A stretch of 64,000 nt of DNA from Patescibacteria group bacterium (GCA_013387215.1 WARW01000022.1:5357-69356); one strand, 5' to 3'; shown: positions 1-43,623, counted from the stretch's first letter. The notes: generated by a model from the letters alone, not told the origin. A program made the numbers and translations.

Positions 1-360
1 ATAAACAACGTCATATCCTTCACACCATTTGTTATAAAATTTTTCGATTATTTCTGGAGGATCTTGAAGATCGCCGTCTAAAAATACAATTGCGTCTCCA
101 GTTGAAATGTCCATTCCGCTAGTGAATGCCATTTGTGAACTGAAATTTCGAGAATGAGTTACGGCAATTGTATGTTTATCTTTATCAACAATTTTTTTTA
201 AAACTGACTCTGAATTGTCTGGGCTGCCATCATTAATAAATATAATTTCATAATCTACACCAATTTTTTGAAATGTTTTTTCGAGACGGTCATGCATTAA
301 AGGAATAGCTTTTTCATCTCGGTAACAAGCAATGATGGCGGAGATTTTTTTAGTTTTCAT
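1..360 (-). CDS. GT2 polyprenyl-phosphate glycosyltransferase (GtrB/ArnC/DPM1-like), partial; C-terminus lies outside the window
   Basis: Reverse-complement of 1..360 translates in frame from ATG at 358..360 as MKTKKISAIIACYRDEKAIPLMHDRLEKTFQKIGVDYEIIFINDGSPDNSESVLKKIV... This is a classic GT2 N-terminus (hydrophobic strand, YEII..DDGS.D.S). The ORF is open to the window edge. Confidence 0.75.
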   Translation of the reverse strand, partial: MKTKKISAIIACYRDEKAIPLMHDRLEKTFQKIGVDYEIIFINDGSPDNSESVLKKIVDKDKHTIAVTHSRNFSSQMAFTSGMDISTGDAIVFLDGDLQDPPEIIEKFYNKWCEGYDVVY

Positions 361-361
361 A

Positions 362-859
362 TTAACGTTTTAAATTAATATACCAAGGTTGGTCTCCATT
401 TAACATTTTTGGAACTAATTCTGAGACTTCATCTGCTGATTCTGGCCAAACAGATTTTATATTTTTAAATATTTTCATCACTTCTCCATCCTCTTCTGAC
501 CAATGTGAAAAACCATCATGGGAATAATCTTTATCTCTTCCTGAACCAACTAAAATCATTGGTGTTTTTTCATGATCTACATAATTTCGTATTGTCTCGA
601 ATGGTCGATATAAAAGGAATGGAGTGATAGAAAAAACGATTGGCAGCTTTCCTTCTAGCGAAAGACCTGTGGCGATTCCAATTAGAGATTGTTCAGCTGC
701 ACCAACATTAAAGAATCGATCTGGGTACTCAGTTCTAATTTGATCCCAAATTCGATAACCAAGATCGCCTGTAACAACGACAATTCTTTTATCATTTTTC
801 ATCGCTTGATAAATTTCATCAGCAAAGCGTCGTCTTAGATTTTGATTATAGTCGATCAT
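362..859 (-). CDS. Transketolase C-terminal-section subunit (pyrimidine-binding domain only; short)
   Basis: GAAEQSLIGIATGLSLEGKLPIVFSITPFLLYRPFETIRNY is the transketolase Pyr-domain signature. It overlaps the upstream subunit gene by 4 nt. At 165 aa it lacks the usual C-terminal domain. Confidence 0.75.
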   Translation of the reverse strand: MIDYNQNLRRRFADEIYQAMKNDKRIVVVTGDLGYRIWDQIRTEYPDRFFNVGAAEQSLIGIATGLSLEGKLPIVFSITPFLLYRPFETIRNYVDHEKTPMILVGSGRDKDYSHDGFSHWSEEDGEVMKIFKNIKSVWPESADEVSELVPKMLNGDQPWYINLKR

Positions 860-1572
860 TTTAATGTCTCCATAGCTAATTCATAATCAGTGTTTTTCAT
901 AGTACAGTAATGAGCATCAAGACCATTTAAGAAGTGAAGCTGTTCTGAGGATGTTTTAGCAAAGATAATTGTTGGAGAGGTATTTTCTAATTTTAATTTG
1001 TCGACAATTTCGTTCGTATTGTGGCCGTTAGCTTTGATAATTTTGAAACCGAAACCTTTAAACCGATTTAATAAATCTTTTGAAGACACAGGATCATATG
1101 CTCCCCAACCGTTTATCGAGGCAATAATTTTTAGATTATTAACTTTCATATCATGAATAATACGTAAACTTTCCCAAATGCTTCCTTCTGCACATTCGCC
1201 ATCTGAAATTAGACAATATACATTTTTATTACGGTTTGCTAAGGCTATTCCAACCGCTATTGGTAACCCTTGTCCAAGACTGCCAGTGGAAACATCAATA
1301 CCAAGTGATGGGTTTCTGTCTGGGTGAACACCTAAAACGTGTAAATCTGGATCTTTTAAAAAGCCATATTTTTCAAGAACTGTGTATAAAGCACTAGCTG
1401 CATGTCCGTTGGAAAGTATAAATTTTTCATCTCTTTTTTTTACGGAATAAACAGCATCGATAATATCGATAACACTTAAGCAAGAACCGATGTGCGAGGC
1501 GTTGAATTTATATATAATTTCTAAAAGTCTTTTGCGAATTTGTTTTTGGTTTTTAGTTAAATTATTTTTCAT
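856..1572 (-). CDS. Transketolase N-terminal-section subunit (ThDP-binding)
   Basis: SNGHAASALYTVL, GSLGQGLPIAVGIALA and ISDGECAEGSIWESL are ThDP-binding PP-domain motifs (G-D-G..E/N). The gene is paired with 362..859 as a split transketolase. Confidence 0.8.
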   Translation of the reverse strand: MKNNLTKNQKQIRKRLLEIIYKFNASHIGSCLSVIDIIDAVYSVKKRDEKFILSNGHAASALYTVLEKYGFLKDPDLHVLGVHPDRNPSLGIDVSTGSLGQGLPIAVGIALANRNKNVYCLISDGECAEGSIWESLRIIHDMKVNNLKIIASINGWGAYDPVSSKDLLNRFKGFGFKIIKANGHNTNEIVDKLKLENTSPTIIFAKTSSEQLHFLNGLDAHYCTMKNTDYELAMETLK

Positions 1573-2462
1573 TTTTGAGCTTCTATACAGATATTACCTA
1601 ATTTTAGATTTATTTGTTGCTCTAAATATTTCGAATGTGAGTTTAATATTTTTAATTTTATAAGCCTAGGAAGCGGCATCAGCCAGAATAGATGCTTTAT
1701 GGACAATGTGTTTTTAGGAGAATAAATTCTAAGTGTTTTAAAACCATTTTTTTTGAAAATTACATTAATAGTTTTAGGGCTATAAAGGCAAGTATGCTCT
1801 ATATCAATAATCGGACTTTTTTCGCCTAGAATTTTGGAAGATAAGCTGTCTATGTTGTGATTAAACGAAAGTATAAAACCATTAGGTTTAAGAATTTTAA
1901 AACATTCTTTTAAATAATCATTTGGATTAGGAATATGGTCAAAAGTTTGAAAAAAGAAAATGAAATCAAAACTTTTTGGCTCAAATAAACCTGGCTTAAG
2001 AATGTTGATTTTAATATTTTTTTTAATTAATTTACTAGATTTATTAACAGCATCAATACTTGGTTCGACTCCAAATACATTTTTATAACCAAGTTTATAT
2101 ATCTTTTCTAAGACAAATCCATTGCCACAACCAATCTCTAAAATTTTTGCATTTTTAGGTATTTTTTTAAGTATTGGTTTTACACTATTTATATATGTAG
2201 ATGTTAGACTTTTTATTTCATCATCATAAGTGAGAAGACTTTTTTCATATAGTTTACTTAAAACATTACTATCTGCAACTGGATTAGATCGAACAAGTCC
2301 GCAAATTTTACATTTAACTAATTGATAGTGAATTTTATCTGGTAAGCGTCTGGCAGAAAAGACTTCTGTGTTAAGATCGCTAATCCTAAAATTTTTATAA
2401 TAGAGAATTTTATATTTTTTTTCACTTCCACAAATAGAACACTTGACGTTTTTAAGTTTCAT
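1569..2462 (-). CDS. Class I SAM-dependent methyltransferase with N-terminal Zn ribbon (TylCIII/NovU-type NDP-sugar methyltransferase-like)
   Basis: The N-terminus has C-x2-C ... C-x2-C (CSICGS...KCKICGLV), resembling the Methyltransf_13 zinc-binding domain. Motif I is LEIGCGNGF. It overlaps the transketolase gene by 4 nt. Confidence 0.65.
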   Translation of the reverse strand: MKLKNVKCSICGSEKKYKILYYKNFRISDLNTEVFSARRLPDKIHYQLVKCKICGLVRSNPVADSNVLSKLYEKSLLTYDDEIKSLTSTYINSVKPILKKIPKNAKILEIGCGNGFVLEKIYKLGYKNVFGVEPSIDAVNKSSKLIKKNIKINILKPGLFEPKSFDFIFFFQTFDHIPNPNDYLKECFKILKPNGFILSFNHNIDSLSSKILGEKSPIIDIEHTCLYSPKTINVIFKKNGFKTLRIYSPKNTLSIKHLFWLMPLPRLIKLKILNSHSKYLEQQINLKLGNICIEAQK

Positions 2463-2463
2463 A

Positions 2464-3399
2464 TTAATAAAATTTATGATTATTTTGAAACCAATCCCAA
2501 GTTAACTTTATCCCAGATTCTAGGTTAGTTTTAGGAATCCATTTTAATAACTGTCTGGCTTTGGAAATATCCGCAACCCAATTATTGGTATCCCAATTTC
2601 TGTTTTCCATACTTCCCCATTTAAAATTAGTGTTGCAACCAGTTACTTTGATAGCAGTTTCAATGACTTCTTTTATAGTTGATTGAACTCCTGTACCAAT
2701 ATTAAAATATTCTCCTGGATTGTTTTTAAGTTCATTGATTTTTAGATAAGCATCTACCATGTCGTCGATGTAAATTTGGTCTCGGGCTGTTTCTGGTGCT
2801 ACTAAATTCATTTCTTCTTTAAATAAGAGTGATTTCATTAGGGTTGGAAAAAATCTTTTCGGCTCTTCATATGGGCCATAAACTGAAAATGGACGGATGG
2901 TAACGATTGGTCTTTTTTCTTGTTTAGCTATATGGCTGCAAAGCAAAGTTTGAGCACATTTGGTGACAGCGTAATAACTTGCAGGTTCAACAATGTCAGT
3001 TTCCCTCATAGCAAAGCTTTTAAATCCATATTCAGAGGAACTGCCAGTATTCACAAATAAGTCATAGTTGATTTGATTGCAAGCTTGAAGCAAATTCCAG
3101 GTACCTAAAATATTAGTTTCAATGATAGCATTGGCGTCTTTTTGATAAGAATATGCACCATTTGTAGCAAGATGATAAATAATATTTGGATGAATCTTTT
3201 CTACTATTTCTGAGAGTTGAACAACATTTGAAAGATCTGAGTGATATATGGTTACTTTATCCAATAGGTCGTTGATTCTCCACGTATTTGATTGCTCTCT
3301 TAATATGATATGAACATTTTCTTTTTGGTCAACCAATTTTCTTAATAAAACTGAACCAATAAATCCTGAAGAACCAGTAATTAAATATGTTTTATTCAT
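2464..3399 (-). CDS. NAD(P)-dependent epimerase/dehydratase (extended SDR; NDP-sugar 4,6-dehydratase or 4-epimerase-like)
   Basis: TGSSGFIGSVLLRKL is the Rossmann GxxGxxG motif and YYAVTK is the catalytic YxxxK. Length is about 311 aa. Confidence 0.8.
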   Translation of the reverse strand: MNKTYLITGSSGFIGSVLLRKLVDQKENVHIILREQSNTWRINDLLDKVTIYHSDLSNVVQLSEIVEKIHPNIIYHLATNGAYSYQKDANAIIETNILGTWNLLQACNQINYDLFVNTGSSSEYGFKSFAMRETDIVEPASYYAVTKCAQTLLCSHIAKQEKRPIVTIRPFSVYGPYEEPKRFFPTLMKSLLFKEEMNLVAPETARDQIYIDDMVDAYLKINELKNNPGEYFNIGTGVQSTIKEVIETAIKVTGCNTNFKWGSMENRNWDTNNWVADISKARQLLKWIPKTNLESGIKLTWDWFQNNHKFY

Positions 3400-3480
3400 T
3401 AAATATTTTATTTGAGAATATTCGTGTTTTGGTTAACAATTCACTCATTTTAATACTATTTTATATATAATAGCAACTGT
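3400..3480. promoter_or_regulatory. Divergent intergenic region (putative promoters)
   Basis: This is an 81-bp AT-rich gap between the minus-strand SDR gene and the plus-strand membrane-protein gene. It has TATATATAAT-like stretches. Confidence 0.3.
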
Positions 3481-5358
3481 ATGTTTAATTTCGATAAAAT
3501 TATTTCTAAAAAGAAAAACCATCTTTTTGGTTTATTTTTATTATTAATAATAGGATTTGTTGTTTTTGATAATTTTTCTAAAGCTTGGATAGTTGAATCT
3601 GATTCATTACATTTTTATATTTTAGCTAGAAGTGGAGGTTTCTTTGACTTAATTAGAAATTTCTTTCTTTCTGATTTATCTTTAGGTCGATCGACTTTTT
3701 TTATTGCAATCTGGTATAGGATTACGTTTATTTTTGATAATTTTATATATTTCAAAACGGTTTATTTTTTATTTTTAAGCTTAGATATAATTCTGTTTTC
3801 GTTTTTACTAAAAAAGATTTTTGGCTTTTCGAAAATGTTTTTATTTATACCCTTACTTATATTATTGTGTTTTTTACAAAATAGTTGGCATCCAAATGGA
3901 GTAGTTGTTTTTTCAAATGTATTTTCCGGATCATTAAGTTTTTTATTTCTTTCATTGATTTTATATATAAAGTATCTTGAAACAAACAAAAAATATTATA
4001 ATTTTTTAAGTTTGTTTTTGTATACGTGTTCATTGTTCACATATGAATTGTATGTTTTATATTTTTTGTTTTTCATAGCAGTGGCGATAAAAAATTTAAA
4101 TAAAAATAATGGATTTAAGGATTTAATTAATAAAATAAAATTCCAAGTTTTACTACTTTCTTTATATCTCTTTGTTTATTTCTTAGTTAAGCATTTTGCA
4201 TCATCTAGTTATGCTGGTGTTACGGTAAGTGGTAGATTTAGCTTAATTAATTCTGTGAAAACAATTTGGCAATTTAGTGTTTCTTCTATTCCTGGGTATA
4301 TGTTGATTTTTGATAAATGGGCTGGAAACATGGAATTGTTTAAAAACACAATGTTTTATGGTTACAGATCCATACTCTTAAATATTCAACCTATATGGAT
4401 TATAAAGTTTGTTTCTGTTTTTAGTTTATTTTATATAGTTACAAAAAATACTAAGCCCGAAAAAAACTATAAGTTCTATATTTTAAATTTAATTTTAGGA
4501 ATAACTTATTTTTTTATACCTCCGGTTTTATTGTCGTTAACGTCACATTACCAGAACATCGTTTTAAACAATGTTTTTTTATCTGAGCCAGTAACGTTGT
4601 TTTCTTTTTTTGCTTTTGTTTATGTTTTTGTTACTTTATTAATTATATTAATAAAATTAATAAATAATTTTTATTTAAAAAATTATTTATTAATGTTTAT
4701 TGGTCTTTGTATTGCGTGTATAGGGCTCGCTGTAGATTATTCAAATTTTGGTTATTCACAATCACAGGAATTGTCGCATTATAAATGGGAAATTGTTAAT
4801 AGGTTTATTAATACTAATGAGTTTAATAATATTCCTGAAAACTCATTTATATATGCTCCAACTCTGTTTAATGGTATCGGTACTGTTGTTGTTGATGATG
4901 ATGATTATTGGAGTAATTATGTATATGTGAAAAGTGGAAAAAAAATTATAATTACAAAAGATATCAGTAAAATTAGCTTAAATAATGGGTATTTTTTAAA
5001 GTATGATCAACAATTGAAAGATAAAGAACAATATCTGGTATTTTCTAAAGTGTTTGCACTTGATGAAACAAAAAAACTTTTCTATTCCAGTAATGCAGAT
5101 ATATATTATTATTCAAAATATAATAATTTTAATATCTTAGGTTATTTTGACGGTTCCAAATGCAAAAAAAAGGAAGAAATTCAAATTGAAAATAAAAAAG
5201 TGCCTGATGTTTCAAATAATTTTGTTTATAATATTGATCCTTCAAATTTTAAAGTTGAAAATAGTTTGAAGAGAATTAATGTTTCATCTCAAGATAAGTG
5301 CGGCTCATTGCGCTTAAATGATTTTGTCGTTTTTCCTGGTTATATTAATAATCAATAG
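3481..5358 (+). CDS. Polytopic membrane protein with C-terminal soluble domain, unknown family (possible GT-C-like)
   Basis: The 625-aa ORF has a very hydrophobic N-terminal about 400 aa with many predicted TM segments and a soluble C-terminal about 200 aa. I recognised no catalytic motif. Confidence 0.5.
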   Translation: MFNFDKIISKKKNHLFGLFLLLIIGFVVFDNFSKAWIVESDSLHFYILARSGGFFDLIRNFFLSDLSLGRSTFFIAIWYRITFIFDNFIYFKTVYFLFLSLDIILFSFLLKKIFGFSKMFLFIPLLILLCFLQNSWHPNGVVVFSNVFSGSLSFLFLSLILYIKYLETNKKYYNFLSLFLYTCSLFTYELYVLYFLFFIAVAIKNLNKNNGFKDLINKIKFQVLLLSLYLFVYFLVKHFASSSYAGVTVSGRFSLINSVKTIWQFSVSSIPGYMLIFDKWAGNMELFKNTMFYGYRSILLNIQPIWIIKFVSVFSLFYIVTKNTKPEKNYKFYILNLILGITYFFIPPVLLSLTSHYQNIVLNNVFLSEPVTLFSFFAFVYVFVTLLIILIKLINNFYLKNYLLMFIGLCIACIGLAVDYSNFGYSQSQELSHYKWEIVNRFINTNEFNNIPENSFIYAPTLFNGIGTVVVDDDDYWSNYVYVKSGKKIIITKDISKISLNNGYFLKYDQQLKDKEQYLVFSKVFALDETKKLFYSSNADIYYYSKYNNFNILGYFDGSKCKKKEEIQIENKKVPDVSNNFVYNIDPSNFKVENSLKRINVSSQDKCGSLRLNDFVVFPGYINNQ

Positions 5359-5362
5359 AGAG

Positions 5363-6058
5363 TTATTTATTTTTTTTGAGAACAAGTTCCCAGCCATAAA
5401 AATAACCTCTTTTCAAGGTTAGTTCTTTTCTAAAAACATTGGCTAAATATGATATTTCTTCTTTTTCTATATATTGAATTCCTCTACCTTTAAAATCAAA
5501 TAAATTTTCAAACCACAACCAATCATCTTCAATGGGAGAACAAGATAATAACTCGAAACCATTTTGGGAAAAAAGTTTAACAATAGAGTCTTTGGTAAGT
5601 TTTTGAATATGTCCTCCACCTTCTGGATGAATCAGGTGATAAAAAATATCTGTAAAATTAGTTGACTCTGGAAAAGCAGCATAAACTATGCCATTTGGCT
5701 TAATAATACTAGTTATTCCCTTAATAAGATTTTCTGGATTAGTCACATGTTCGAGAACATGATTAGCGACAACCATGTCAAATTTTTTGTCCCAATTAAC
5801 AATTCTTTTAAAGAATTTTTTAAAAGGCAGGTTTATATATTTTTCGATTTTATCTTTTGGTTTGATTTCGTGAAGGCAAGATGCGTCAAGCTTGTATATA
5901 TTTACATTTTTAGGAAAATGTTTCGGAAAGAAATAAAGATCTATTCCTGTAATCTTGGCTTTTTGATCAATTAATGACCACCAGTGACTTCCGTTTGGTC
6001 CTGTGCCAATATCAAATATATTTTGTTTATTTTTTAAATATTTTTTTATGCCTATCAT
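5363..6058 (-). CDS. Class I SAM-dependent methyltransferase
   Basis: DIGTGPNG is motif I and VVANHVLEHV is the post-I acidic/hydrophobic motif typical of Methyltransf_11/23. The stop overlaps the upstream fusion gene by 4 nt. Confidence 0.7.
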   Translation of the reverse strand: MIGIKKYLKNKQNIFDIGTGPNGSHWWSLIDQKAKITGIDLYFFPKHFPKNVNIYKLDASCLHEIKPKDKIEKYINLPFKKFFKRIVNWDKKFDMVVANHVLEHVTNPENLIKGITSIIKPNGIVYAAFPESTNFTDIFYHLIHPEGGGHIQKLTKDSIVKLFSQNGFELLSCSPIEDDWLWFENLFDFKGRGIQYIEKEEISYLANVFRKELTLKRGYFYGWELVLKKNK

Positions 6059-8931
6059 TTATTTTCTGGTAAATAATGATGTTTCTGCCAAGTTGTATTC
6101 CATTTATCTTCAAATAATTTTTTATTAGTTTCAAAAATTATTTTATATTCATCGGTTTCAATTTTTTTAAATGAAGCTCCTCCAAAATGATGAATAAAGA
6201 TATCCCGTGCGCAAAGTATTCTGAGACCAGCAAGCTTAACTCGATGACAATAATCATCATCTTCAAATAATCCCCTGCCAAACCTTTCATCCAAATTGCC
6301 TATCGATTGATGAGTGTTTTTGGACATTATCCAGCAAAAAGCGGCTATGTTTCCAAGTTCTAATGATTTACCCCAATTTGCAGAAGTATATTCTCTTGCT
6401 TTTGATTCAAGTTTTTTTTGATTTTTAGGATCGTAGTCTATGTCTATTTTTGCCTCATTTCCAATACTATTAGTTACAGGACCAACTAATCCTACATTAT
6501 TTTTTTTACAATAAAAAATTAAACGAGTAATCCACCCTGGTGTAATTAATACATCGTTATTAAGTAAAATTATATAATCTCCAGAGGCTTCACTTAATCC
6601 AATATTATTGCCTTTTGCAAAACCATAATTATTTTTATTAAAAATTATTTTAACGTTCTTGTTTTTTGAATATTCTTTAATAACCTTCTTTGTTTCATGG
6701 TCTGAATTGTTATCAACAATTATTAGTTCGTAATTAGGAAAGAATGTTCGTTTTAAAATACTATCAATAGTGTTTCTGGTCATTTCCGGATTATTGTAAG
6801 TAAGTAAAATAATGCTAGTTTTAGGGAAAATATTATTTTTAATAATTTCTAATAACTGTTCTGCTCGTTTATCCCAGGTGTTGTTTTTGGCAATTAATTG
6901 TCTTTCTTCAATATTTTTATTCTTGTTTTTTATGGCTAATTTAATTTGATTGCTAAAATTTGTTTTATTACTGAAATAAATATTGTCTTTAAATTCTAAG
7001 ATTTCAGGCATTTCTGTGGTTACAACTGGTTTTCCAGCCGCAAAATATTCAAAAATTTTTACTGGATGAGTTGCTTTAATTAATTCATTCAAAATAAAAG
7101 GAATCATGCATACATCAAAGTGTTGTAGGTATGAAGGTAATGAATCATATGGTTTTTCGCCAAGCAGATGAATGTTTTTATATTTATTAGCAAGCTTCTC
7201 GATTTTATCGTTAGTTACATTACCAATCAATACAAAGGAAATGTCTCTATTTTTTTGAGCAATATCTTCTAAGATTTCTGTATCAAACCACTCTGCTATC
7301 GCACCATAATAGCCAACAATTGGTTGTGAAATATTTTTTAAATCATCGGGGATATTAAACGTGCAATGACTAGCAGTTTCGAAATGATTATAATCACCAG
7401 CATTTTTAATCAAAGAGATGCTCTTTGCTTGTTTGTTTTGGGCTAATTTTTCTAAATAATTAGACGTGGTAATTGTAATGTCTGATTCAGTAAACAGTTT
7501 TTGTTCCAAATCAATATTATTTGTTCCGTTTTCATTAAAACCTTGATGATTATCCATACAATCATATACAGAAGGCATTGCTATATCATTTAAAATATGA
7601 GCCCAAAATGGATGATCTATTTTTGCAATAGGATTAATAATATTAGCTTTATATAACAATGTTTTAATTGAAGCTAAAATAATTTTTTTATCAGTTGCTG
7701 AGGGGGTTTCATTATAAATGAAGAGATTTCTAGATGCAGAGAGTGTTACTGCATAAACATTATTTGTTTTTTTAACTATTTTAATTGGTGCAAAGACATT
7801 CTTTGCATTTTTATATGGAAGAAATTCGTTTTCAATATAAAAAACTCGATTGTTTTTTGTTGCAATATTTGCTGCTAATTGTTGGGGTCTTTGATATCTA
7901 AAATCCCAAGAGATAACGCTAAAATTAATTAAATCAATACTATCTTCACTTCTTTTATTGTTTCTCCATTCTTCTAAAATTTCTTTAGAAATGTTGATTT
8001 TTGGGTTATTAAATAATTTTGCGCTAATGGTGGCTTTAAGTTGTTTTCTTAGTTTAATTGGTATAATTTTCTTTACAATTTTTTTGATTAAAAAACTAAT
8101 TTTTTTGTATATGCTTAATATTTTCCAAGTTTTTGATGCATAAATTTTGTTTAGAGTTTGAGAGTATTCAGTAATCTGTTTTTCGTCTTGATTTACTTTT
8201 TGAGTTAATGAATCAACATTTTTTGTAAGTATTTCATTCTGTTTTTGAATTGTTGATATAAACACATCACTATTCTCTTTTTTATTTATAGTCGAATAAG
8301 CAGGTATACTGGAAAGATCAGTGTTTTTGATATTAGAATATACTAATATTAGCTGTTTTCCTGGCCAAAAGGTGTTTTGTATACGTGATGTATCTGTGAC
8401 TCTAAAAAATGATAGATAAAAATCTTTTTCCTGGAGATTAAAACTATCAAAATCAAAACTAGACAAATGTTCTTTAAATTTATTTTTTTCTTGAAATGGT
8501 ATTTGAAGGATTAAATATTTTTTTGTTTTTACTAACAACTTTTCAAGTTTTTCTTTTGGATTTTCAAAATGTTCTAATGTATTAGAACAATATAAGACGT
8601 CGTAAGATTTAGACAATTCATTTATATCTTCAACTCTGAATTGTAAATTTGGATATTTCTTTTTAGCTTTATTTATTGCAATCTTTGAAAAATCGACTCC
8701 TTCTGCTTTTATCTTTTTAAATTTTTTAGAAAAAATTTCAACACATTGACCTTCAGCGCAACCTATATCACAAAGCGTAAGTTTGTTATTTTCAAACTCG
8801 TTTATCAACCAACTAGGTAGATTTTTTAGTGCAATATTACAAAAAAAGCTTGTTTGTTCTGGTCCGCTGTTTGTTTCCCAATCGGTTTCGAACCTGTTAT
8901 CCCAATAGTTTTTATCATTTATTTTTGTCAT
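6055..8931 (-). CDS. Multidomain methyltransferase / coiled-coil / GT4 / GT2 glycosyltransferase fusion (WbdD/WbbB-like architecture)
   Basis: The N-terminus carries LCDIGCAEGQ...VLYCSNTLEHFENP, a SAM methyltransferase domain. The middle is K/E/Q-rich, a predicted coiled coil. A GT4 core follows (FDVCMIPFI...IFEYFAAGKPVVTTEMPEI). The C-terminus is GT2 (SIILLTYNN...ELIIVDNNSDHET...LLNNDVL...EDDDYC). Confidence 0.75.
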   Translation of the reverse strand: MTKINDKNYWDNRFETDWETNSGPEQTSFFCNIALKNLPSWLINEFENNKLTLCDIGCAEGQCVEIFSKKFKKIKAEGVDFSKIAINKAKKKYPNLQFRVEDINELSKSYDVLYCSNTLEHFENPKEKLEKLLVKTKKYLILQIPFQEKNKFKEHLSSFDFDSFNLQEKDFYLSFFRVTDTSRIQNTFWPGKQLILVYSNIKNTDLSSIPAYSTINKKENSDVFISTIQKQNEILTKNVDSLTQKVNQDEKQITEYSQTLNKIYASKTWKILSIYKKISFLIKKIVKKIIPIKLRKQLKATISAKLFNNPKINISKEILEEWRNNKRSEDSIDLINFSVISWDFRYQRPQQLAANIATKNNRVFYIENEFLPYKNAKNVFAPIKIVKKTNNVYAVTLSASRNLFIYNETPSATDKKIILASIKTLLYKANIINPIAKIDHPFWAHILNDIAMPSVYDCMDNHQGFNENGTNNIDLEQKLFTESDITITTSNYLEKLAQNKQAKSISLIKNAGDYNHFETASHCTFNIPDDLKNISQPIVGYYGAIAEWFDTEILEDIAQKNRDISFVLIGNVTNDKIEKLANKYKNIHLLGEKPYDSLPSYLQHFDVCMIPFILNELIKATHPVKIFEYFAAGKPVVTTEMPEILEFKDNIYFSNKTNFSNQIKLAIKNKNKNIEERQLIAKNNTWDKRAEQLLEIIKNNIFPKTSIILLTYNNPEMTRNTIDSILKRTFFPNYELIIVDNNSDHETKKVIKEYSKNKNVKIIFNKNNYGFAKGNNIGLSEASGDYIILLNNDVLITPGWITRLIFYCKKNNVGLVGPVTNSIGNEAKIDIDYDPKNQKKLESKAREYTSANWGKSLELGNIAAFCWIMSKNTHQSIGNLDERFGRGLFEDDDYCHRVKLAGLRILCARDIFIHHFGGASFKKIETDEYKIIFETNKKLFEDKWNTTWQKHHYLPENK

Positions 8932-17923: not shown

Positions 17924-19483
17924 TGTTTTTATTCTTATTTTAGAAATAGTGGATTTTTGGTTAATTAATTCTTGAATCAGAAATTTGAATTGGTGAACAT
18001 AATTCATCTTTCTTTTTGATCTTAAGACGATTGATAAATATCGAGGGCTTAAATGAAAAATAATATTTGGAAGAATTCGATTGAATTTGTTATTTTGAAA
18101 ATTAGACCAAGATAAAATATCAATTTTATGTTTGGAAAATCGATACTTTTGAGGAAATTTCTTAATTAGAAGTGGAGCAGAGGCTAGTTCTAAATATTCA
18201 TTTTTAGAAAAGTGATATGGGCTTTGATCATAAATTTCTGTGCCAGGATATGGAGTAAATACATTTATACTGACGATATCTGGTTTAAGTTTTTCAGTAA
18301 AATGGACTATATCATTTAGGTCTTTTTTGGTTTCATTGGGAAGATTGACTAAAAAGTTAGCAAAAGTCCTTATATGGTATTTTTGGCAAAGTTTAAAAAT
18401 ATTAGTAATCATTTCAACTGATATACCTTTTTTTACATCGTTTAGAGCTTGGTTAGAACCTCTCTCGACACCAAAATCTATTTGTACACATCCAGCTTGG
18501 GACATTATTTTTAATAAATTTTCATTAAGAGTTGAGACTTTTGAAGAACATCCCCAAAGCAAATTAAGTTTTTCTTTTTTGAGAAGAGTACAAAATTCTT
18601 TAACATTGTCTTGATTAATCGTAAAAAGATCATCAATAAAATAAAAACTGTCAATATTATATTTATTATATAAATGTTTAATTTCTTTAATTAAGTTTTT
18701 AGCTGATCTGACACGGGTGTATCTTCCCCCACCATTATAACCACGAAGTTTTTTAGCTACACAAAAAGTGCAAGTTGAAGGGCAGCCTCTTGTTGCCAAT
18801 AGATAGGCAGATCTTAAAAAGCAGCCACGAATAGAATATGGCGAGGCGTTTGAATAATATTCCATATCTATTTGGTCATAGTCGGCATATGAGATTTTGT
18901 CGAGGTCTTCTTGGAGAGGTCTTAATGGTGTTTTAATAATTTGCTTAGTTTTTTTGTCGTTGTAAGCAATACCTTTTATTTGAGAGAAATCTTTTGTTTT
19001 CTTTTTGAGTGCTGTTACTAATTCAAAAAGTGTTTCTTCCCCTTCTCCAATTATTTCAAAATCGACTGGTGTATTTTTTTCGTTAAGTAATTCATCTGGG
19101 TATAGTGTTGGATGAATTCCTCCAATGATAATTGTGGCTTTTGGATTAATTTCTTTTATTTTTTTAGCAAGATTTAGGACTTCAAAATATTCGGGTGTGT
19201 AACATGTTATGCCGTAAATATTGGTAGTATTATTTTTGATTTGTTCGATCATTTCATCTTCAATTGATTGTCGATATTTATCAATTTGATCAAAAAATTT
19301 TTTATCACGGATAACAGTCTTTTCAGTTACATCTATGATTTTACAGGTTAGTTTTTGGTGTTTAAGATATCCAGCTAAATAAATCAAAGCCATTGGTGGA
19401 CGGTAGTGATTAAAACTTCGTGAGGGTGGAGACAACAAAATAATGTCGAAATTTTTTTTCATAATTTTTTTTAAGTGTAACAT
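17903..19483 (-). CDS. B12-binding domain radical SAM protein (class B radical SAM), paralog
   Basis: DIILLSPPS...MALIYLAGYLK is a B12-binding-type N-terminus. ATRGCPSTCTFCVA is Cx3Cx2C. The gene overlaps 16439..17923 by 21 nt in convergent orientation. Confidence 0.8.
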   Translation of the reverse strand: MLHLKKIMKKNFDIILLSPPSRSFNHYRPPMALIYLAGYLKHQKLTCKIIDVTEKTVIRDKKFFDQIDKYRQSIEDEMIEQIKNNTTNIYGITCYTPEYFEVLNLAKKIKEINPKATIIIGGIHPTLYPDELLNEKNTPVDFEIIGEGEETLFELVTALKKKTKDFSQIKGIAYNDKKTKQIIKTPLRPLQEDLDKISYADYDQIDMEYYSNASPYSIRGCFLRSAYLLATRGCPSTCTFCVAKKLRGYNGGGRYTRVRSAKNLIKEIKHLYNKYNIDSFYFIDDLFTINQDNVKEFCTLLKKEKLNLLWGCSSKVSTLNENLLKIMSQAGCVQIDFGVERGSNQALNDVKKGISVEMITNIFKLCQKYHIRTFANFLVNLPNETKKDLNDIVHFTEKLKPDIVSINVFTPYPGTEIYDQSPYHFSKNEYLELASAPLLIKKFPQKYRFSKHKIDILSWSNFQNNKFNRILPNIIFHLSPRYLSIVLRSKRKMNYVHQFKFLIQELINQKSTISKIRIKTLNTERF

Positions 19484-19528
19484 AGGCTGATATATTTGTT
19501 GAAAAATATTGTTAGGTTATAATGGCTT
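19484..19528. promoter_or_regulatory. Divergent intergenic region between two class-B radical SAM genes (putative promoters)
   Basis: This is a 45-bp AT-rich gap. The minus-strand radical SAM gene is embedded in an otherwise plus-strand operon, so it needs its own promoter here. Confidence 0.3.
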
Positions 19529-20977
19529 ATGAGTTTGAAAACAAAAAATAATGATGTGGATATAGTTCTAATAAGCAGCCCGATGGTTTTGTATAAAAAC
19601 AAAAAGGATAAAAAAGAAAATTTGAATGAAGATGGAGACGAAAAATCATATTATCCGATAAATATTTTATATTTGACAGCATATTTAGAAAAATTTGGAC
19701 ATAAAGTAAAGATAATCGATGTTTCAATGGAAGGGTTAACTTTGGATCAAGTTGTAAAAAAGGTTGATTTAATAAATCCTAAAATGATTGGAATTTCATC
19801 AATGACAACCAGTATTCAGTCGGCAGTTACTTTGGCAAAAGCTTTGAAAAAGAAAGGTAGAACAATTGGACTTGGCGGTGTTCATTTGACTTGCGATCCT
19901 ACTTTTATAGATCGATTTCCAGTGTTTGATTGGGGAATTGTTGGAGAAGGTGAAGTTACATTATTGGAACTAGTTGAAAAAAGTAAAAAAGGAGAAAAGA
20001 TTAAAGGATTATTTCAAGGAAAAAGAATTGAGGATTTAGACACAATCCCTTTCCCTGCTCGACATCATGTGAGAATGGAAGATTATCGTAGAAATGAAGA
20101 ATCTGAAGTGCCAGCTGCAGGAATATTGGCTAGCCGAGGATGTCCTTACAACTGTGTTTTTTGCTGTATTCCAGCTAGAGGAAAGATGGTTAGGTTTAGA
20201 TCTCCAAAGAATATTGTCGATGAAATGGAAGAGATTTATGAAGAATGCCAAGGGAAATATTCGTTCGTGGATGATTGTTTTACTATAAATAATAAATGGG
20301 TTTCCGAACTTTGCCAAGAAATAATGGATAGAAAGATGAAGGTTAGTTTTGTGGCTTCAACTAGAGCCGATACTTTAACCTTAGAAATGGCGAAAATGAT
20401 GAAAAAGGCTGGTTGTACTGATTTATTTTTAGGAATCGAAAGCGGTAATGACAAAATAAGAAACGAAGTTATTGGTAAAAGATTAAAATATGAAAATATA
20501 GTTAAAGCTGTAAAAATATGCCGAAAGGTAGGAATATTGTCTAATTTATTTTTAATGGTTGGATTTCCTGGAGAAGGTATAAAAGAAGCATTAGATACGG
20601 TTAGAATTGGTGGAAGAATTAAGGCAGATATTATTGGAATTCATGTGACTATTCCAATGCCTGGTTCAAGAATTTATGACTATGCTATTCAAAATAAATT
20701 AATTCCAAAAGATATTATTGATCGATGGGCAAGTGGTAAATTGGGACGAGTGTGGCGAAGCAATTGGCCATTATTTGTTCCTGAAGGCATGACTTTGAAG
20801 AAATTGTTTTGGATAAAAAGAATCACTTACATGTATTTTTATTTCTCCCCTTTTTGGTGGTATAGAAGAATCAAATTATGGTTCAAATCTAGCAAAATGT
20901 TTTTTGCTGATATGAGAATGATGAAAATTGCTTTTCATGCATTCACAACCGGCGGAACAAAAGGACAGCTATCTTAA
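19529..20977 (+). CDS. B12-binding domain radical SAM protein (class B radical SAM), paralog
   Basis: DIVLISSP...INILYLTAYLEKFGH is a B12-binding-type N-terminus with a K/D/E-rich insertion. ASRGCPYNCVFCCIP is Cx3Cx2C. Confidence 0.8.
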   Translation: MSLKTKNNDVDIVLISSPMVLYKNKKDKKENLNEDGDEKSYYPINILYLTAYLEKFGHKVKIIDVSMEGLTLDQVVKKVDLINPKMIGISSMTTSIQSAVTLAKALKKKGRTIGLGGVHLTCDPTFIDRFPVFDWGIVGEGEVTLLELVEKSKKGEKIKGLFQGKRIEDLDTIPFPARHHVRMEDYRRNEESEVPAAGILASRGCPYNCVFCCIPARGKMVRFRSPKNIVDEMEEIYEECQGKYSFVDDCFTINNKWVSELCQEIMDRKMKVSFVASTRADTLTLEMAKMMKKAGCTDLFLGIESGNDKIRNEVIGKRLKYENIVKAVKICRKVGILSNLFLMVGFPGEGIKEALDTVRIGGRIKADIIGIHVTIPMPGSRIYDYAIQNKLIPKDIIDRWASGKLGRVWRSNWPLFVPEGMTLKKLFWIKRITYMYFYFSPFWWYRRIKLWFKSSKMFFADMRMMKIAFHAFTTGGTKGQLS

Positions 20978-20992
20978 ATGCTATAATTTGAT

Positions 20993-22720
20993 ATGCGTGA
21001 GAAAAAACTTGTTTTGGCTACTGATTATGTGTTGGATGTTGTAGAAAAAACTGGAGTTAAGCATGTTTTTGGTGTTACTGGAGGTGCAATTTCAAATCAA
21101 ATTGACGCATTTTCAAGAAATAATAAAGTTAAATTTATTGCAGTTCAACACGAACAGGCTGCAGCTATGGCTGCTGAAGGATATGCAAGAATAAATGGTT
21201 ATGGAGTGGCAATGGCAACAAGTGGTCCTGGCGGATCAAACATGATTACTGGTATCAGTGGCTGTTGGTTTGATTCAATTCCTACTTTGTTTATAACTGG
21301 ACAGGTGTCAACTTTTGATTTGAAGACAAATGGTGTGAGACAGCGTGGTTTTCAGGAAATTGGAATGTCTGATTTAATGAAACCTATAACTAAATTTTCG
21401 AAACTGATAACTGACCCAAAAGATTTGGCCAAATCCCTAGAAACTGCTATTAAAATCTCAAAAAGTGATCGTTTTGGACCTGTTCATTTAGATTTACCAA
21501 TGGATGTTCAAATGTCTAAAATTGAAGAAGAAAAAATTAATTTAAAAATAGATAGGAAAAAGATTAAAATTAATTTAACTGATACCTTAGGTTTAATTAA
21601 GAATGCAAAAAGACCAGTTTTAATATTGGGAAATGGTGTAAAGCTGGCGGGAGCAGTTAATGAATTTAAAAAATTAGCAGACAAGTTAAATTGGCCAATA
21701 TTGCCTTCTTGGGCCTACGCCGAATTTCAACATAAAAATAGGATTGAGTTGTTTGGAGTTTATGGCAGCAGAGGAGCAAATTTTGTGGTTCAAAATGCAG
21801 ATCTAATTTTGGCAATTGGCACCAGGCTAGATACTAGAATGACTGGCAGCAATCCTAAACAATTTGCTAGAGAAGCTAAAAAAATTATTGTTGATATTGA
21901 TAAAAATGAATTAGAAAAAAAGGTTGTTATTCCTGATGTTGCTTTAAATATTGATGCAAAAGATTTTTTAAGTGAAATAAATAAAAACAAAATAGAGTGT
22001 GGTATCGAAAAAGATTGGTTAAAAAAATGTTTAAGGTGGAAGGATGAGTATCCTTTGGTAACAAAAGAAGCTATTAAAGATAATGTAATTAATCCATATA
22101 ACTTTTGTAGAATACTTTCTGAAGAAGCTGCTGAAGGAGACATTATTACTGCAGATACTGGAGCAAATTTAGCCTGGTTAATGCAATGTTGGAAATTTAA
22201 AAAGAACCAAAACCTTTTTTCATCATTCGGTAACTCACCTATGGGATATTCACTACCTGCTGCAATTGGGGCTTCATTCGCCGCTAATAAACGAGTTATT
22301 TGTACTACTGGTGACGGTGGAATACAAATGAACATTCAAGAATTACAAACTATCGTTAATTATGATTTGCCAATAAAGATATTTGTGTTTAGCAATAAAG
22401 GATACGGCATGATTAGGCAATTTCAAGATTTGTACATGGGTGGTAGACATGAAGCAACATGTGAAGGAGTGCCTGATTTTGCTAAAGTAGCCGAAGCTTA
22501 TGGAATTCAAAGTATAAGAGTGGAAAAGAAAACCCAATTAAGAAAAGCAATAAAGAAAGCATTGGCATCACCAAAAGCATTTTTAGTTGATGTATTAGTT
22601 GAACCAAGTTCTATTATTGAACCAAGGGCAATTTTTGGAAAACCGATTGAAGAACAATCACCTTATTTGCCAGAAAAAGATACTTTAGACCATTTGCTAG
22701 TAAAAAGATGGAAACCTTGA
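20993..22720 (+). CDS. Thiamine-diphosphate-dependent acetolactate-synthase-like enzyme (YerE-like two-carbon branching enzyme candidate)
   Basis: The N-terminal Pyr domain has HVFGVTGGAISNQIDAF...VQHEQAAAMAAEGYAR...TSGPGGSNMITGI. The C-terminal PP domain has TTGDGGIQMNIQEL...FSNKGYGMI (GDG...N ThDP motif). Length is 575 aa. Confidence 0.8.
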   Translation: MREKKLVLATDYVLDVVEKTGVKHVFGVTGGAISNQIDAFSRNNKVKFIAVQHEQAAAMAAEGYARINGYGVAMATSGPGGSNMITGISGCWFDSIPTLFITGQVSTFDLKTNGVRQRGFQEIGMSDLMKPITKFSKLITDPKDLAKSLETAIKISKSDRFGPVHLDLPMDVQMSKIEEEKINLKIDRKKIKINLTDTLGLIKNAKRPVLILGNGVKLAGAVNEFKKLADKLNWPILPSWAYAEFQHKNRIELFGVYGSRGANFVVQNADLILAIGTRLDTRMTGSNPKQFAREAKKIIVDIDKNELEKKVVIPDVALNIDAKDFLSEINKNKIECGIEKDWLKKCLRWKDEYPLVTKEAIKDNVINPYNFCRILSEEAAEGDIITADTGANLAWLMQCWKFKKNQNLFSSFGNSPMGYSLPAAIGASFAANKRVICTTGDGGIQMNIQELQTIVNYDLPIKIFVFSNKGYGMIRQFQDLYMGGRHEATCEGVPDFAKVAEAYGIQSIRVEKKTQLRKAIKKALASPKAFLVDVLVEPSSIIEPRAIFGKPIEEQSPYLPEKDTLDHLLVKRWKP

Positions 22721-23412
22721 TTACTGGAGCTAATGGTTTTATTGGAAGTTATCTTTGTGAAAAATTTCCTGATGCAAAAAAACTAACTCACAAGGATTGT
22801 GACTTAGCTAATTGGCGAGAAGTTGAAAAATTTAATTGGGAAGGTGAAGTAATAATTAATTGTGCTAATTATGGTACTTATGGTGAAGAAAACGCAAATG
22901 GAGTAGAAATAAATATTAGAATGTTGGAAAACTTAAGAAAGCGATGGCCTAATTCTAAAATAATTTCTTTTGGGTCAGGGGCTATGTATGATAAAAGCAA
23001 ACCAATAATTAAGGCTAGTGAGTATGATTTAGTTTCAAATCCAAAAGACAGCTATGGATTATCTAAAAAAATGACAGTGGATATGAGTGATGTGACTTTA
23101 ATAATTTTTGGTTTATTCGCTAAAACCAGATTTGTTAAAGCGGTTTTGGAAAGTATAAAAGAAAATAAACCGGTAGAAATTTTCCAAGATGCTAAGTTCT
23201 CTTGGGTAAACTTAAGTGATTTTGAAAAAATTATAAATTGGGCAATAAAGAAAGGAAGTGGAAGGTATAATCTTTGTGGTTATGATATGTTATTATCAGA
23301 TGTTGCCAAGAAACTTGGAGCTATAAAAATTAAATATTTAAAAAAAGGAATGGCTTTTGAGTATACTGGTAAAGAAAGTCAAATTAAACTAAGTCGATGT
23401 CCAAGTTTTTAA
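22708..23412 (+). CDS. Short NAD(P)-dependent SDR-type sugar reductase/epimerase (RmlD/GDP-fucose synthase/YerF-like)
   Basis: ITGANGFIGSYL is the Rossmann motif and YGLSK is YxxxK. At 234 aa it is compact. It overlaps the upstream gene by 13 nt and the downstream gene by 16 nt. Confidence 0.65.
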   Translation: METLITGANGFIGSYLCEKFPDAKKLTHKDCDLANWREVEKFNWEGEVIINCANYGTYGEENANGVEINIRMLENLRKRWPNSKIISFGSGAMYDKSKPIIKASEYDLVSNPKDSYGLSKKMTVDMSDVTLIIFGLFAKTRFVKAVLESIKENKPVEIFQDAKFSWVNLSDFEKIINWAIKKGSGRYNLCGYDMLLSDVAKKLGAIKIKYLKKGMAFEYTGKESQIKLSRCPSF

Positions 23413-24533
23413 ACTACAACAAAGCAATTTTCGGAAAATCTGAAAAACAAGCGGTGATGAAAGCATTGAATAAAGGTTGGCTGAGTAATGGAATGGACAC
23501 TTTAAATTTTGAAAAAGAATTTGCAGATTGGTGGGGTATTAAATATTCTTTAACTACAAATAGCGGTTCAACTGCAAATTTAGTAGCTCTTCAAGCGTTA
23601 GATTTGCCGAAAGGTTCTGAAGTTATTACGCCTGCCGGTGGTGCTTTTCCAACTACAATTTCGCCTTTATATTATTTAGGGCTAAAACCAGTATTTGTTG
23701 ATATTAAATGTTTGACAATAGATCCTGAAGAAATAGTTAAAGCAATAAGCAAAAAGACAAAAGTTATTTTATTCTCCCACACTTTAGGTCAAATCCCAAA
23801 TATGAAAAGAATTGTTGAGATTGCCAAAAAATATGATTTAAGAATAATGGAAGATTGCTGCGATGCTGTTGGTTCGAAACAGGATGGTAAGATGGTTGGT
23901 ACTTTTGGAGACATAGCCACAATATCTTTTTACCCTGCTCACCACATGACTACTGGTGAGGGCGGAATGGTGATAACTAACAATAGAAAATTGTATAAAA
24001 CAGCAAATAGTATTCGTGATTGGGGAAGAGATTGTGTTTGCAGGGCTGATAATAACAATCCAATGTGTGTTGATCGATATAGAAATCCCCCGTTTGACCA
24101 CCGATATTATTATTCTCGAATTGGACTTAATTTTAAAATGTCTGAAATGCAAGCTGCATTTGGAAGAGAACAATTAAAAAGACTTGATAAATTCATAGAA
24201 ATAAGAAGAAGAAATTATAAAATTTTAGCTGATATATTTAACGAACCATTTGATGAACAAATTTCACCATTTGCATATCCTTTATTATCAAAAAATAAGA
24301 ATAAAATGATGCATGAACTGCAAAAAAGAAATATTGAGAGTCGAGTGATATTTGCAGGCAATATTATTAAACATCCAGCTTTTAAAGATTTGGATTATCG
24401 AGTTGTGGGTGATCTGAAAAATAGCAATATTCTTTTTAAGCAAGGATATTTTGTGGGGGTTGGACCCAACTTGACGATTAACGACATGAAATTTATCGGA
24501 AAATCAATTTTGGAAATTGAAAAAACTTTGTAG
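23397..24533 (+). CDS. DegT/DnrJ/EryC1 family PMP-dependent sugar 3-dehydrase-like enzyme (E1/DdhC/AscC-like; Lys replaced by His; Fe-S cysteine motif)
   Basis: It has the DegT-fold pattern. At the SF..K..GEGG position the sequence reads SFYPAHHMTTGEGG, so His replaces the Schiff-base Lys, as in E1 and ColD. The cysteines are arranged EDCCDA-(57 aa)-CVC-(8 aa)-C, i.e. C-x57-C-x1-C-x8-C, very close to the E1 [2Fe-2S] motif C-x57-C-x1-C-x7-C. Confidence 0.7.
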   Translation: MSKFLNYNKAIFGKSEKQAVMKALNKGWLSNGMDTLNFEKEFADWWGIKYSLTTNSGSTANLVALQALDLPKGSEVITPAGGAFPTTISPLYYLGLKPVFVDIKCLTIDPEEIVKAISKKTKVILFSHTLGQIPNMKRIVEIAKKYDLRIMEDCCDAVGSKQDGKMVGTFGDIATISFYPAHHMTTGEGGMVITNNRKLYKTANSIRDWGRDCVCRADNNNPMCVDRYRNPPFDHRYYYSRIGLNFKMSEMQAAFGREQLKRLDKFIEIRRRNYKILADIFNEPFDEQISPFAYPLLSKNKNKMMHELQKRNIESRVIFAGNIIKHPAFKDLDYRVVGDLKNSNILFKQGYFVGVGPNLTINDMKFIGKSILEIEKTL

Positions 24534-43622: not shown

Positions 43623-43623
43623 T

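Follow-up and report, generated by a model that had tools for sequence, protein, structure and literature searches.

What is a pair of shortened transketolase (TK) halves doing in a locus filled with genes for glycan synthesis? The question is raised by a 64-kb stretch of DNA (64,000 nucleotides, hereafter the window) from a Patescibacteria group bacterium (GCA_013387215.1 WARW01000022.1:5357-69356), which is a single large glycan locus with 26-33% GC. Positions 1-3399 carry five closely packed minus-strand genes. In the order of transcription they encode an extended short-chain dehydrogenase/reductase (SDR; 2464..3399, 311 aa), a class I S-adenosylmethionine (SAM) methyltransferase (MT; 1569..2462, 297 aa), TK_N, which is the TK subunit binding the diphosphate part of thiamine diphosphate (ThDP), or PP subunit (856..1572, 238 aa), TK_Pyr, the pyrimidine-binding (Pyr) subunit (362..859, 165 aa), and a family 2 glycosyltransferase (GT2; 1..360), of which the window edge leaves the N-terminal 120 residues. 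All open reading frames listed in a preliminary description of this DNA exist at their coordinates on the minus strand. Its proposal that the TK pair belongs to a single operon with the extended SDR, the MT and the GT2 is borne out by the tight junctions and the translational coupling; the 4-nt overlaps that it reported are present at two of the four junctions (MT/TK_N and TK_N/TK_Pyr, both ATGA), whereas the SDR/MT and TK_Pyr/GT2 junctions are 1-nt spacers (TAAT-ATG). The best explanation is that the host is a Candidate Phyla Radiation (CPR) bacterium, of the Microgenomates type, and that the five genes make up one sugar-tailoring and export cassette. For the TK pair itself we propose, tentatively and with a probability somewhat short of even, a ThDP-dependent transfer of a two-carbon ketol onto the carbonyl of a sugar nucleotide.

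TK_N matched PF00456 (Transketolase_N, E=3.5e-18) over profile positions 7-244 of 334, and TK_Pyr matched PF02779 only (Transket_pyr, E=7.9e-18), over positions 5-169 of 174. The TKC domain (PF02780) gave no match in TK_Pyr, which stops at the last residue of the Pyr domain. The pair was thus correctly recognized at the outset as a split and shortened TK whose 165-aa half has no TKC. The nearest solved structures are the split-TK N chain of PDB 6YAK for TK_N (E=8.5e-30) and 6YAJ for TK_Pyr (E=6e-19), the latter alignment reaching the last residue. An AlphaFold model of TK_Pyr, built on a deep alignment, comprises a complete Pyr domain (pLDDT 93, pTM 0.90), and a Foldseek comparison gave template-modelling (TM) scores of 0.83-0.90 to the Pyr domains of split TK, human TK and DXS. 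Because the alignment extends to the last Pyr residue and the model superposes on these structures, TK_Pyr is regarded as a complete domain and not as a fragment. The length of 165 aa is kept in more than 100 homologues at 63-85% identity; a pseudogene or a truncation artefact is excluded by this conserved length together with the confident model. A decarboxylase of the DC family (ComDE, phosphonopyruvate decarboxylase) was also excluded, domain order and sequence being of the TK type, and the TPP_enzyme_N/M/C three-domain architecture of YerE-like enzymes is not present in the pair, which has PF00456 and PF02779. With the curated TK equivalog NF004559 the PP subunit reached 144.5 bits and the Pyr subunit 65.7 bits (cutoff 488). 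A scan of a genome collection with the single 165-aa sequence returned one weak archaeal match only (a 784-aa open reading frame, 23% identity). The pair is therefore predicted to be a stripped-down split enzyme of the TK family, with neither TKC nor linker. E. coli TK from which TKC was deleted reportedly retains activity. The TKC domain has been viewed as a late, non-catalytic addition, and a reconstituted split TK was active and tolerated bulkier acceptors (PMC7661550).

Active-site residues were compared by aligning 234 sequences, with E. coli TktA as the anchor; 168 of these sequences are of the short, Pyr-only kind (minis). The TK_N proteins of the mini pairs keep the equivalents of His26, His66, His100, Asp155, Glu160, Asn185 and His261 (E. 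coli numbering), Asp155 and Asn185 being aligned with the ThDP/metal motif SDGE...NGW. The equivalent of the cofactor-activating Glu411 is found in all 168 minis; His473 is kept in TK_Pyr, and Asp469 in 134 of the 168. The residues specific to TK (His26, His66, His100, His261, His473 and Asp469) are present in the window pair and in bacterial and viral mini pairs alike. The sugar-phosphate site (Arg358, Ser385, His461, Arg520) is incomplete: Arg358 is kept in 160 of the 168 minis and Arg520 occurs as Arg or Lys, but the Ser385 loop is deleted and His461 is replaced by Gly (162/168), next to which stands an Arg specific to the subfamily (142/168). Taking into account that the catalytic residues are kept and that His461, the Ser385 loop, the linker and TKC are lost, the enzyme is predicted to retain everything known to be needed for TK-type catalysis and to have a remodelled distal substrate site.

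The closest described relative of the pair is the split TK of Carboxydothermus hydrogenoformans (ChTK, 6YAK/6YAJ), which is its best match in sequence and in fold (TM score 0.86). Both consist of separate PP and Pyr polypeptides without an inter-domain linker and share the catalytic His, Glu and Asp residues; ChTK is active only as the reconstituted alpha2-beta2 enzyme (PMC7661550). They differ in that the ChTK beta chain has a TKC domain (~310 aa) and keeps His461, and that the enzyme serves in the pentose-phosphate pathway, whereas the present pair has no TKC, a PP subunit of 238 aa instead of about 280-309 aa, Gly-Arg in place of His461-Asp462, and a glycan operon as its setting.

A second group of proteins, about 300 aa long and nearest to the minis, also has Gly at position 461 and mostly Leu or Ala at 469; none of them reaches a curated equivalog. 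The replacement of His461 stands as a mark of a non-housekeeping enzyme at the level of the whole clade, these sisters included, because the sisters that share the Gly also lie in glycan operons. In two of the related loci found in searches (numbered L001 onwards), L028 and L029, the operons have the order SDR-NUDIX-TK_N-TK_C, followed by genes for a B12-binding radical SAM protein, a DegT and an RmlC-like protein, together with Wzm/Wzt, a GHMP kinase and a nucleotidyltransferase. A locus of Candidatus Nealsonbacteria (GCA_026396195.1; L027, 1464-7933) holds two TK-like pairs: a mini pair (276 + 168 aa) after a B12-binding radical SAM gene and, in the same glycan locus, a long split pair with TKC (274 + 310 aa) followed by DegT, a CapD-like dehydratase and Wzy. 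The long split TK of Salmonella has a catabolic context, so splitting alone does not imply a role in glycan synthesis. For the clade considered here, the recurrence of split TKs in glycan loci was upheld, every mini or sister context examined being a glycan locus. A separate observation concerns the NUDIX hydrolase gene directly upstream of TK_N in the two independent sister operons of L028 and L029 (5586-6138): its product could supply a sugar phosphate from a nucleotide sugar, which bears on the question of precursor supply discussed below.

Named homologues of the 165-aa protein come from CPR bacteria of the Microgenomates group (Shapiro-, Pace-, Ames- and Gottesmanbacteria). The order SDR-MT-TK_N-TK_Pyr-GT2 recurs, as tightly coupled as in the window, in L001, in L004-L007 (one assembly of Gottesmanbacteria, three metagenomes) and, at a greater distance, in L012/L013. 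Identities to the window are 51-80% for the SDR, 38-67% for the MT, 51-68% for TK_N, 59-76% for TK_Pyr and 71-75% for the GT2. The flanking genes vary (PMT_2, YfhO, DUF2142, DegT, Ugd, more GT2s and methyltransferases) and are always glycan genes; the DegT gene lies beside the cassette in L004 and the Ugd gene in L001. A HMMER search of 1.84 billion representatives found Pyr-only proteins of 150-175 aa down to about 34% identity, and in a neighbour-joining tree the Pyr-only minis group in a single block (45 leaves) that is separate from the ~300-aa proteins with Pyr and TKC.

The occurrence of the module in phages and giant viruses had been missed by the preliminary description. Loci L010/L011 and L014/L015 look giant-viral because they carry TFIIS, PhoH, asparagine synthetase and GT34/GT47/GT61-type genes, and IMG/VR contributed 11 more viral loci (L016-L026), one of them labelled as a giant-virus metagenome-assembled genome. 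L031, the contig of a tailed phage, has genes for the small and the large terminase and for a P22-type portal, and L032 and L033 look like phage as well. In these viral and phage loci TK_N (203-245 aa; 37-44% identity to the window protein) and TK_Pyr (156-167 aa; 46-52%) are encoded beside one or more extended SDRs, methyltransferases and glycosyltransferases; the triad SDR-TK_N-TK_Pyr is kept and a GtrB-type GT2 is missing. No pentose-phosphate gene was found in the roughly ten types of mini-TK context examined. The mini TKs constitute a coherent subfamily, and the SDR-TK_N-TK_Pyr triad is the conserved core of their loci. In a tblastn search against a phage collection only matches of 25-38% identity were obtained, several of them resembling host fragments; the Salmonella split TK mentioned above was among these matches. 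A more distant short form was seen in BFVD: Campylobacter virus IBB35 (H6SUI2) and Campylobacter phage CP21 (I7KLL3) have Pyr-only TK-like proteins of 171-192 aa, with a structural match to the TK_Pyr model of E=1.5e-6 at 19% identity. Two transketolase-related genes of Micromonas virus MpV-SP1 have been interpreted as belonging to the Calvin cycle or the pentose-phosphate pathway (PMC5454428); these genes are probably of the glycan-tailoring type. A giant-virus glycan review of 290,000 characters makes no mention of thiamine or transketolase.

The SDR (PF01370 Epimerase, E=9e-44) has the motifs TGSSGFIG (GxxGxxG) and Y143xxxK, and its catalytic Ser lies in the unusual motif G-S-S-S-E-Y; the T-S-E / T-D-E motif of decarboxylases and 4,6-dehydratases is absent from it. 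Its best PDB matches, aligned end to end, are the UDP-GlcA 4-epimerase 6ZL6 (1e-34), 4ZRM and MoeE5. Orthologues in the cassettes of L001, L004 and L012 are 51-80% identical to it. The giant-virus SDR adjoining TK_N also has GSSSEY and is the reciprocal best match of the CPR cassette SDR at 28-32% identity. Extended SDRs of the UDP-sugar 4-epimerase class act on nucleotide sugars. From these similarities the protein is classed as a UDP-sugar 4-epimerase-like extended SDR, putatively an epimerase, an oxidase or a ketoreductase.

The MT (Methyltransf_23, E=3.6e-22) had been described as a Zn-ribbon C-methyltransferase of the TylCIII type. The first part of this assignment stood: an N-terminal four-Cys Zn-ribbon (CxxC...CxxC) is formed by C8, C11, C51 and C54, and the Cys residues are invariant in four MT orthologues, as is a DIEH motif. 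The TylCIII label was not supported, the matches to that type being marginal. Neither PF08421 nor PF08484 matched the MT at E<=0.01 in the Pfam scan, and its length of 297 aa compares with about 410-426 aa in NDP-hexose 3-C-methyltransferases. The PDB match to 4rv9 was weak (E=0.0095); with a profile, 5t64 and 3ndi were matched at 2.5e-4 and 1e-3. The weak alignments to TylC3, KijD1 and TcaB9 (E 1e-2 to 3e-4) were collinear but ranked behind more than 30 generic methyltransferases, and residues 1-100 and 169-297, searched alone in the PDB, gave no TylC3 or TcaB9 match. An AlphaFold model of the MT, made without an alignment, was unusable (pLDDT 44.6). The methyltransferase family differs between systems, with Methyltransf_23 in CPR and the non-homologous FkbM-type Methyltransf_21 in viruses. 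That one and the same TK-SDR core has recruited unrelated families of methyltransferase suggests a functional tie between methylation and the product of the TK. Because enzymes of the FkbM type methylate oxygen, the step need not be a C-methylation. A further protein of about 215 aa is encoded between TK_N and TK_Pyr in the giant-virus-like L014 (8348-9004) and in the tailed-phage L031 (6097-6744), the two copies being 36% identical. Its match to Methyltransf_24 is sub-threshold (E=0.002); as it also shows the pattern DTFEGHP...D.D, an O-methyltransferase similar to TylF/CmcI is a possible identity.

A GT2 at the window edge was rightly noted in the preliminary description, which missed its type. 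The window fragment contains DGD and shares 68-80% identity with the complete GT2s encoded in the cassettes of L001, L004 and L012. These have two C-terminal transmembrane segments and match the NCBIfam models PgfS (1e-73) and ArnC (1e-46 to 1e-49), with scores below the equivalog cutoffs; in the PDB they match Synechocystis GtrB 5EKP at 3e-73 and ArnC structures at 1e-40. The cassette GT2 is accordingly assigned, by sequence similarity, as a polyprenyl-phosphate glycosyltransferase of the GtrB/ArnC/PgfS type. GT2 enzymes of the GtrB/ArnC class transfer the sugar of a nucleoside diphosphate (NDP)-sugar to polyprenyl phosphate, and the lipid-linked sugar is later used by GT-C enzymes outside the membrane, as in the Gtr, Arn, Pgf and CsbB/YfhO systems. 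The window encodes about 16 multi-transmembrane proteins (480-760 aa), a few of which carry signatures of PMT/PMT_2 or YfhO (GT-C type), along with many GT2 and GT4 genes and a Wzm/Wzt-like ABC pair. Since the GT2 is of the GtrB type, which matches the abundance of GT-C-like genes nearby, the cassette probably ends in a lipid-linked sugar donor for these ~16 membrane proteins.

The density of putative polyprenyl-phosphate-sugar-dependent transferases in the window is unusual in itself. A tandem array of five paralogous minus-strand genes (33935-42258) encodes proteins of 547-583 aa with 8-9 transmembrane segments each, one of them with PMT/PMT_2, and about ten more GT-C-like membrane proteins lie at sites including 43603-45330, 47138-50283 and 58057-62869; among them is a YfhO homologue, encoded at 51044-53323.

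The sequence data show the enzyme families, a TK with intact catalytic residues, a conserved linkage of the genes and a context that is exclusively glycan. In the following scheme, which is built on them, we infer what the substrate is, that two carbons are transferred, in which order the steps occur and that they end on a lipid. The transfer of a glycolaldehyde unit onto an NDP-ketosugar, put forward in the preliminary description, fits these observations. The extended SDR would act on a common nucleotide sugar and supply, or later reduce, a carbonyl. The two small TK subunits would form an alpha2-beta2 ThDP enzyme, as does the split TK of C. hydrogenoformans, and would move a glycolaldehyde-type ketol from a ketose phosphate or hydroxypyruvate to the carbonyl of the sugar nucleotide, giving a C-branched or chain-extended sugar. 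The MT would then methylate this product, the GtrB/ArnC-type GT2 would load the finished sugar on polyprenyl phosphate, and GT-C-type membrane glycosyltransferases would pass it to the cell envelope outside the membrane. In the viral version the NDP-sugar would be used directly by Leloir glycosyltransferases. A nucleotide sugar is favoured as the acceptor because the SDR partner is of the nucleotide-sugar type and the sister operons are NDP-sugar in character, because the GT2 class needs an NDP-sugar and yet no activation enzymes lie near the cassette in three independent loci (in the window, L001 and L004, neither the cassette nor the DNA up to 10 kb away from it has a kinase, isomerase or nucleotidyltransferase gene), and because there is a literature precedent, itself a hypothesis (PMC12247030).

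Several points weigh against this scheme. With its two phosphate-binding arginines retained, the enzyme would suit ordinary sugar phosphates as substrates just as well. Chemistry of the TK type and of the DXS type cannot be told apart by the comparison of folds; pyruvate could therefore be the donor, leaving an acetyl branch. The SDR looks like an epimerase that keeps its keto intermediate bound, unlike a dehydratase or decarboxylase that releases a keto sugar. The GT2 is most similar to glucose-transferring GtrB and could simply make polyprenyl-P-glucose independently of the TK product. Finally, a 2025 review states that the use of a ketone or a nucleotide sugar as acceptor has yet to be demonstrated for any TK.

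The main rival places the enzyme one stage earlier: the mini TK would make an unusual ketose phosphate (a pentulose, heptulose, octulose or deoxy-ketose) from free sugar phosphates, and SDR reduction, methylation and activation as an NDP-sugar or CDP-alditol would turn it into a glycan building block. Proven TK chemistry is restricted to aldehyde acceptors, and the minis keep not only the sugar-phosphate ligands Arg358 and Arg520 but also Asp469, which reads the 2-OH of the acceptor. A GHMP kinase and a nucleotidyltransferase gene lie 3 kb downstream of the L012 cassette, as they do inside the L028/L029 operons, and a cytidylyltransferase gene adjoins the pair in L032; ketoses such as xylulofuranose are known from chlorovirus N-glycans (PMC9614988). 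We nevertheless consider this route unlikely, although a serious contender, because the phosphate ligand His461 is lost, because the SDR that invariably accompanies the pair is extended and GalE-like, and SDRs of this class bind nucleotide sugars, and because no kinase, isomerase, phosphatase or nucleotidyltransferase lies near the cassette in the window, L001 and L004.

In a further alternative the GT2 would act first, making a polyprenyl-P-sugar that the SDR, TK and MT would then remodel on the lipid. DprE1/DprE2 and ArnD modify polyprenyl-P-sugars in other pathways, so oxidation, reduction and deacylation at this level have precedent; the GT2 resembles enzymes that use common UDP-sugars and is the most conserved gene of the cassette (71-75% identity between distant cassettes). 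Such an order of events is nonetheless improbable, since the viral and phage loci have SDR-TK_N-TK_Pyr without a GtrB-type GT2, so that the core chemistry needs no lipid carrier, and since the three soluble enzymes have no predicted transmembrane segment.

That the pair is the host's own pentose-phosphate TK, streamlined and simply lying beside glycan genes, would agree with the full TK catalytic set, with both phosphate-binding arginines and with the reduced CPR genomes and their dependence on the non-oxidative part of the pentose-phosphate pathway (PMC7304191), but, as judged from the window and the related loci, it is very improbable in view of the translational coupling to SDR, MT and GT2 and a linkage kept across distant lineages, the presence of the same subfamily beside SDRs, methyltransferases and glycosyltransferases in giant viruses and a tailed phage, the two TK-like pairs within the single L027 glycan locus, a curated TK score far under the cutoff (144 bits against 488), the loss of His461, and the operon in which, in Ch65, a closed genome of the Microgenomates, the housekeeping TK genes lie together with fructose-bisphosphate aldolase (PMC7143001).

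Ketol transfer to a nucleotide sugar has its nearest counterpart in split TKs of Streptomyces, which have been proposed to add hydroxyacetyl branches to keto sugars in the pathways of miharamycin and amipurimycin and in 13 Streptomyces clusters (PMC12247030). These TKs, compared here by description, likewise lie in sugar-tailoring clusters, beside an oxidoreductase thought to create the keto acceptor, and the reaction is a proposal there too. They belong to secondary-metabolite clusters, all in Streptomyces, whereas the present pair has no TKC, is carried by CPR bacteria, phages and giant viruses, and has an apparent cell-surface glycan as its product. ThDP-dependent C-C bond formation on NDP-keto sugars, giving two-carbon branches, is also the work of YerE-type enzymes, AviB1/AviB2 and KbDH (PMC12247030), which are encoded beside SDRs, aminotransferases and methyltransferases. 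They come from other branches of the ThDP superfamily: YerE, in which the Pyr domain precedes the others, has the decarboxylase/acetohydroxyacid synthase (AHAS) fold, and AviB and KbDH are of the 2-oxoacid dehydrogenase E1 type. Their donors are in every case pyruvate or 2-oxoacids, whereas a hydroxylated (ketol) donor is suggested here by the His26/His261 pair of the TK type. The export half of the cassette resembles the Arn, Pgf and Gtr systems (ArnA/B/C/T; PgfS/E/M; GtrA/B/C) and CsbB/YfhO in combining a nucleotide-sugar SDR, a GtrB/ArnC-type transferase and GT-C enzymes. None of these has a ThDP enzyme; the tailoring step, which is formyl transfer, transamination or simple epimerisation in those systems, is represented here by the TK pair and the methyltransferase.

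Neither the enzyme families nor the proposal that split TKs serve in sugar branching is new. What appears to be undescribed is a minimal TK without TKC, the constant company that it keeps with a signature SDR and a methyltransferase, the link to GtrB-type lipid loading in CPR, and the occurrence in tailed phages and giant viruses. Taken jointly, these features could mean that the pair is the smallest enzyme of the TK family (~360-400 aa in total) and the first TK-type carboligase acting on nucleotide sugars, that its product is a methylated sugar, either C2-branched or extended in its chain, of a kind so far undescribed in these organisms, that the module is mobile among CPR bacteria, tailed phages and giant viruses, and that the TKs of prasinoviruses such as MpV-SP1 serve glycan tailoring; that all of this holds together is doubtful, if well worth considering. 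Were it true, a widespread type of ThDP enzyme, with thousands of metagenome sequences, would be shared by three very different kinds of genome, and a new sugar would be expected on the surface of CPR bacteria, of whose envelopes next to nothing has been characterised, and on virions or on host surfaces modified by viruses. Viral 'transketolases', annotated as auxiliary metabolic genes of central carbon metabolism (PMC5454428), would have to be re-annotated. For ThDP biocatalysis, in which an enzyme for ketol transfer to bulky or ketone acceptors is explicitly sought (PMC12247030), the pair would also be the first experimentally tractable TK scaffold of very small size.

Upstream of the SDR gene lies a divergent intergenic region of 81 bp with 20% GC (3400..3480), presumed to be the promoter region of the cassette. 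Promoter-like hexamers were seen on the minus strand at 3494-3447; the counts of a promoter/terminator scan were not above those of shuffled sequence, such a scan being uninformative in DNA of 28-32% GC. The divergently transcribed gene (3481..5358, plus strand) encodes a 625-aa membrane protein with ~10 transmembrane segments by hydropathy and without a Pfam or NCBIfam match. The matching position is occupied in L001 by a PMT_2 protein and in L012 by a 625-aa membrane protein beside a YfhO protein, neither of which has BLAST similarity to the window protein; this weak association makes the latter a candidate GT-C-type user of the lipid-linked sugar.

The YerE-like ThDP enzyme mentioned in the preliminary description is present in the same locus, at 20993-22720. 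This AHAS-family protein of YerE-like architecture (575 aa; TIGR00118, 434 bits, below the cutoff of 538) belongs to a second ThDP module on the plus strand (20993-24533), together with a 234-aa short SDR and a DegT-family protein that scores best as an RfbH/E1 CDP-4-keto-6-deoxyglucose 3-dehydrase (380 bits, cutoff 423). The CPR host has no branched-chain amino-acid pathway that would explain an AHAS, and the make-up of the module suggests that a CPR bacterium has a 3,6-dideoxy-4-C-branched sugar resembling yersiniose. Three consecutive B12-binding radical SAM genes (494, 526 and 482 aa) occupy 16439-20977 on alternating strands, and a further radical SAM gene and one with a SPASM domain are found at 28737-30224 and 8995-9825, respectively. 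B12-binding radical SAM genes directly adjoin TK-like pairs in L027, L028 and L029, and the two may be functionally associated. A 958-aa fusion protein encoded at 6055-8931 (minus strand) combines three domains, with a SAM methyltransferase at the N terminus, a GT1/GT4 in the middle and a GT2 at the C terminus, and a CofD/YvcK-family protein (TIGR01826, the UDP-GlcNAc-binding YvcK type, below the cutoff) is encoded at 13560-14552 (plus strand) beside a 622-aa membrane protein.

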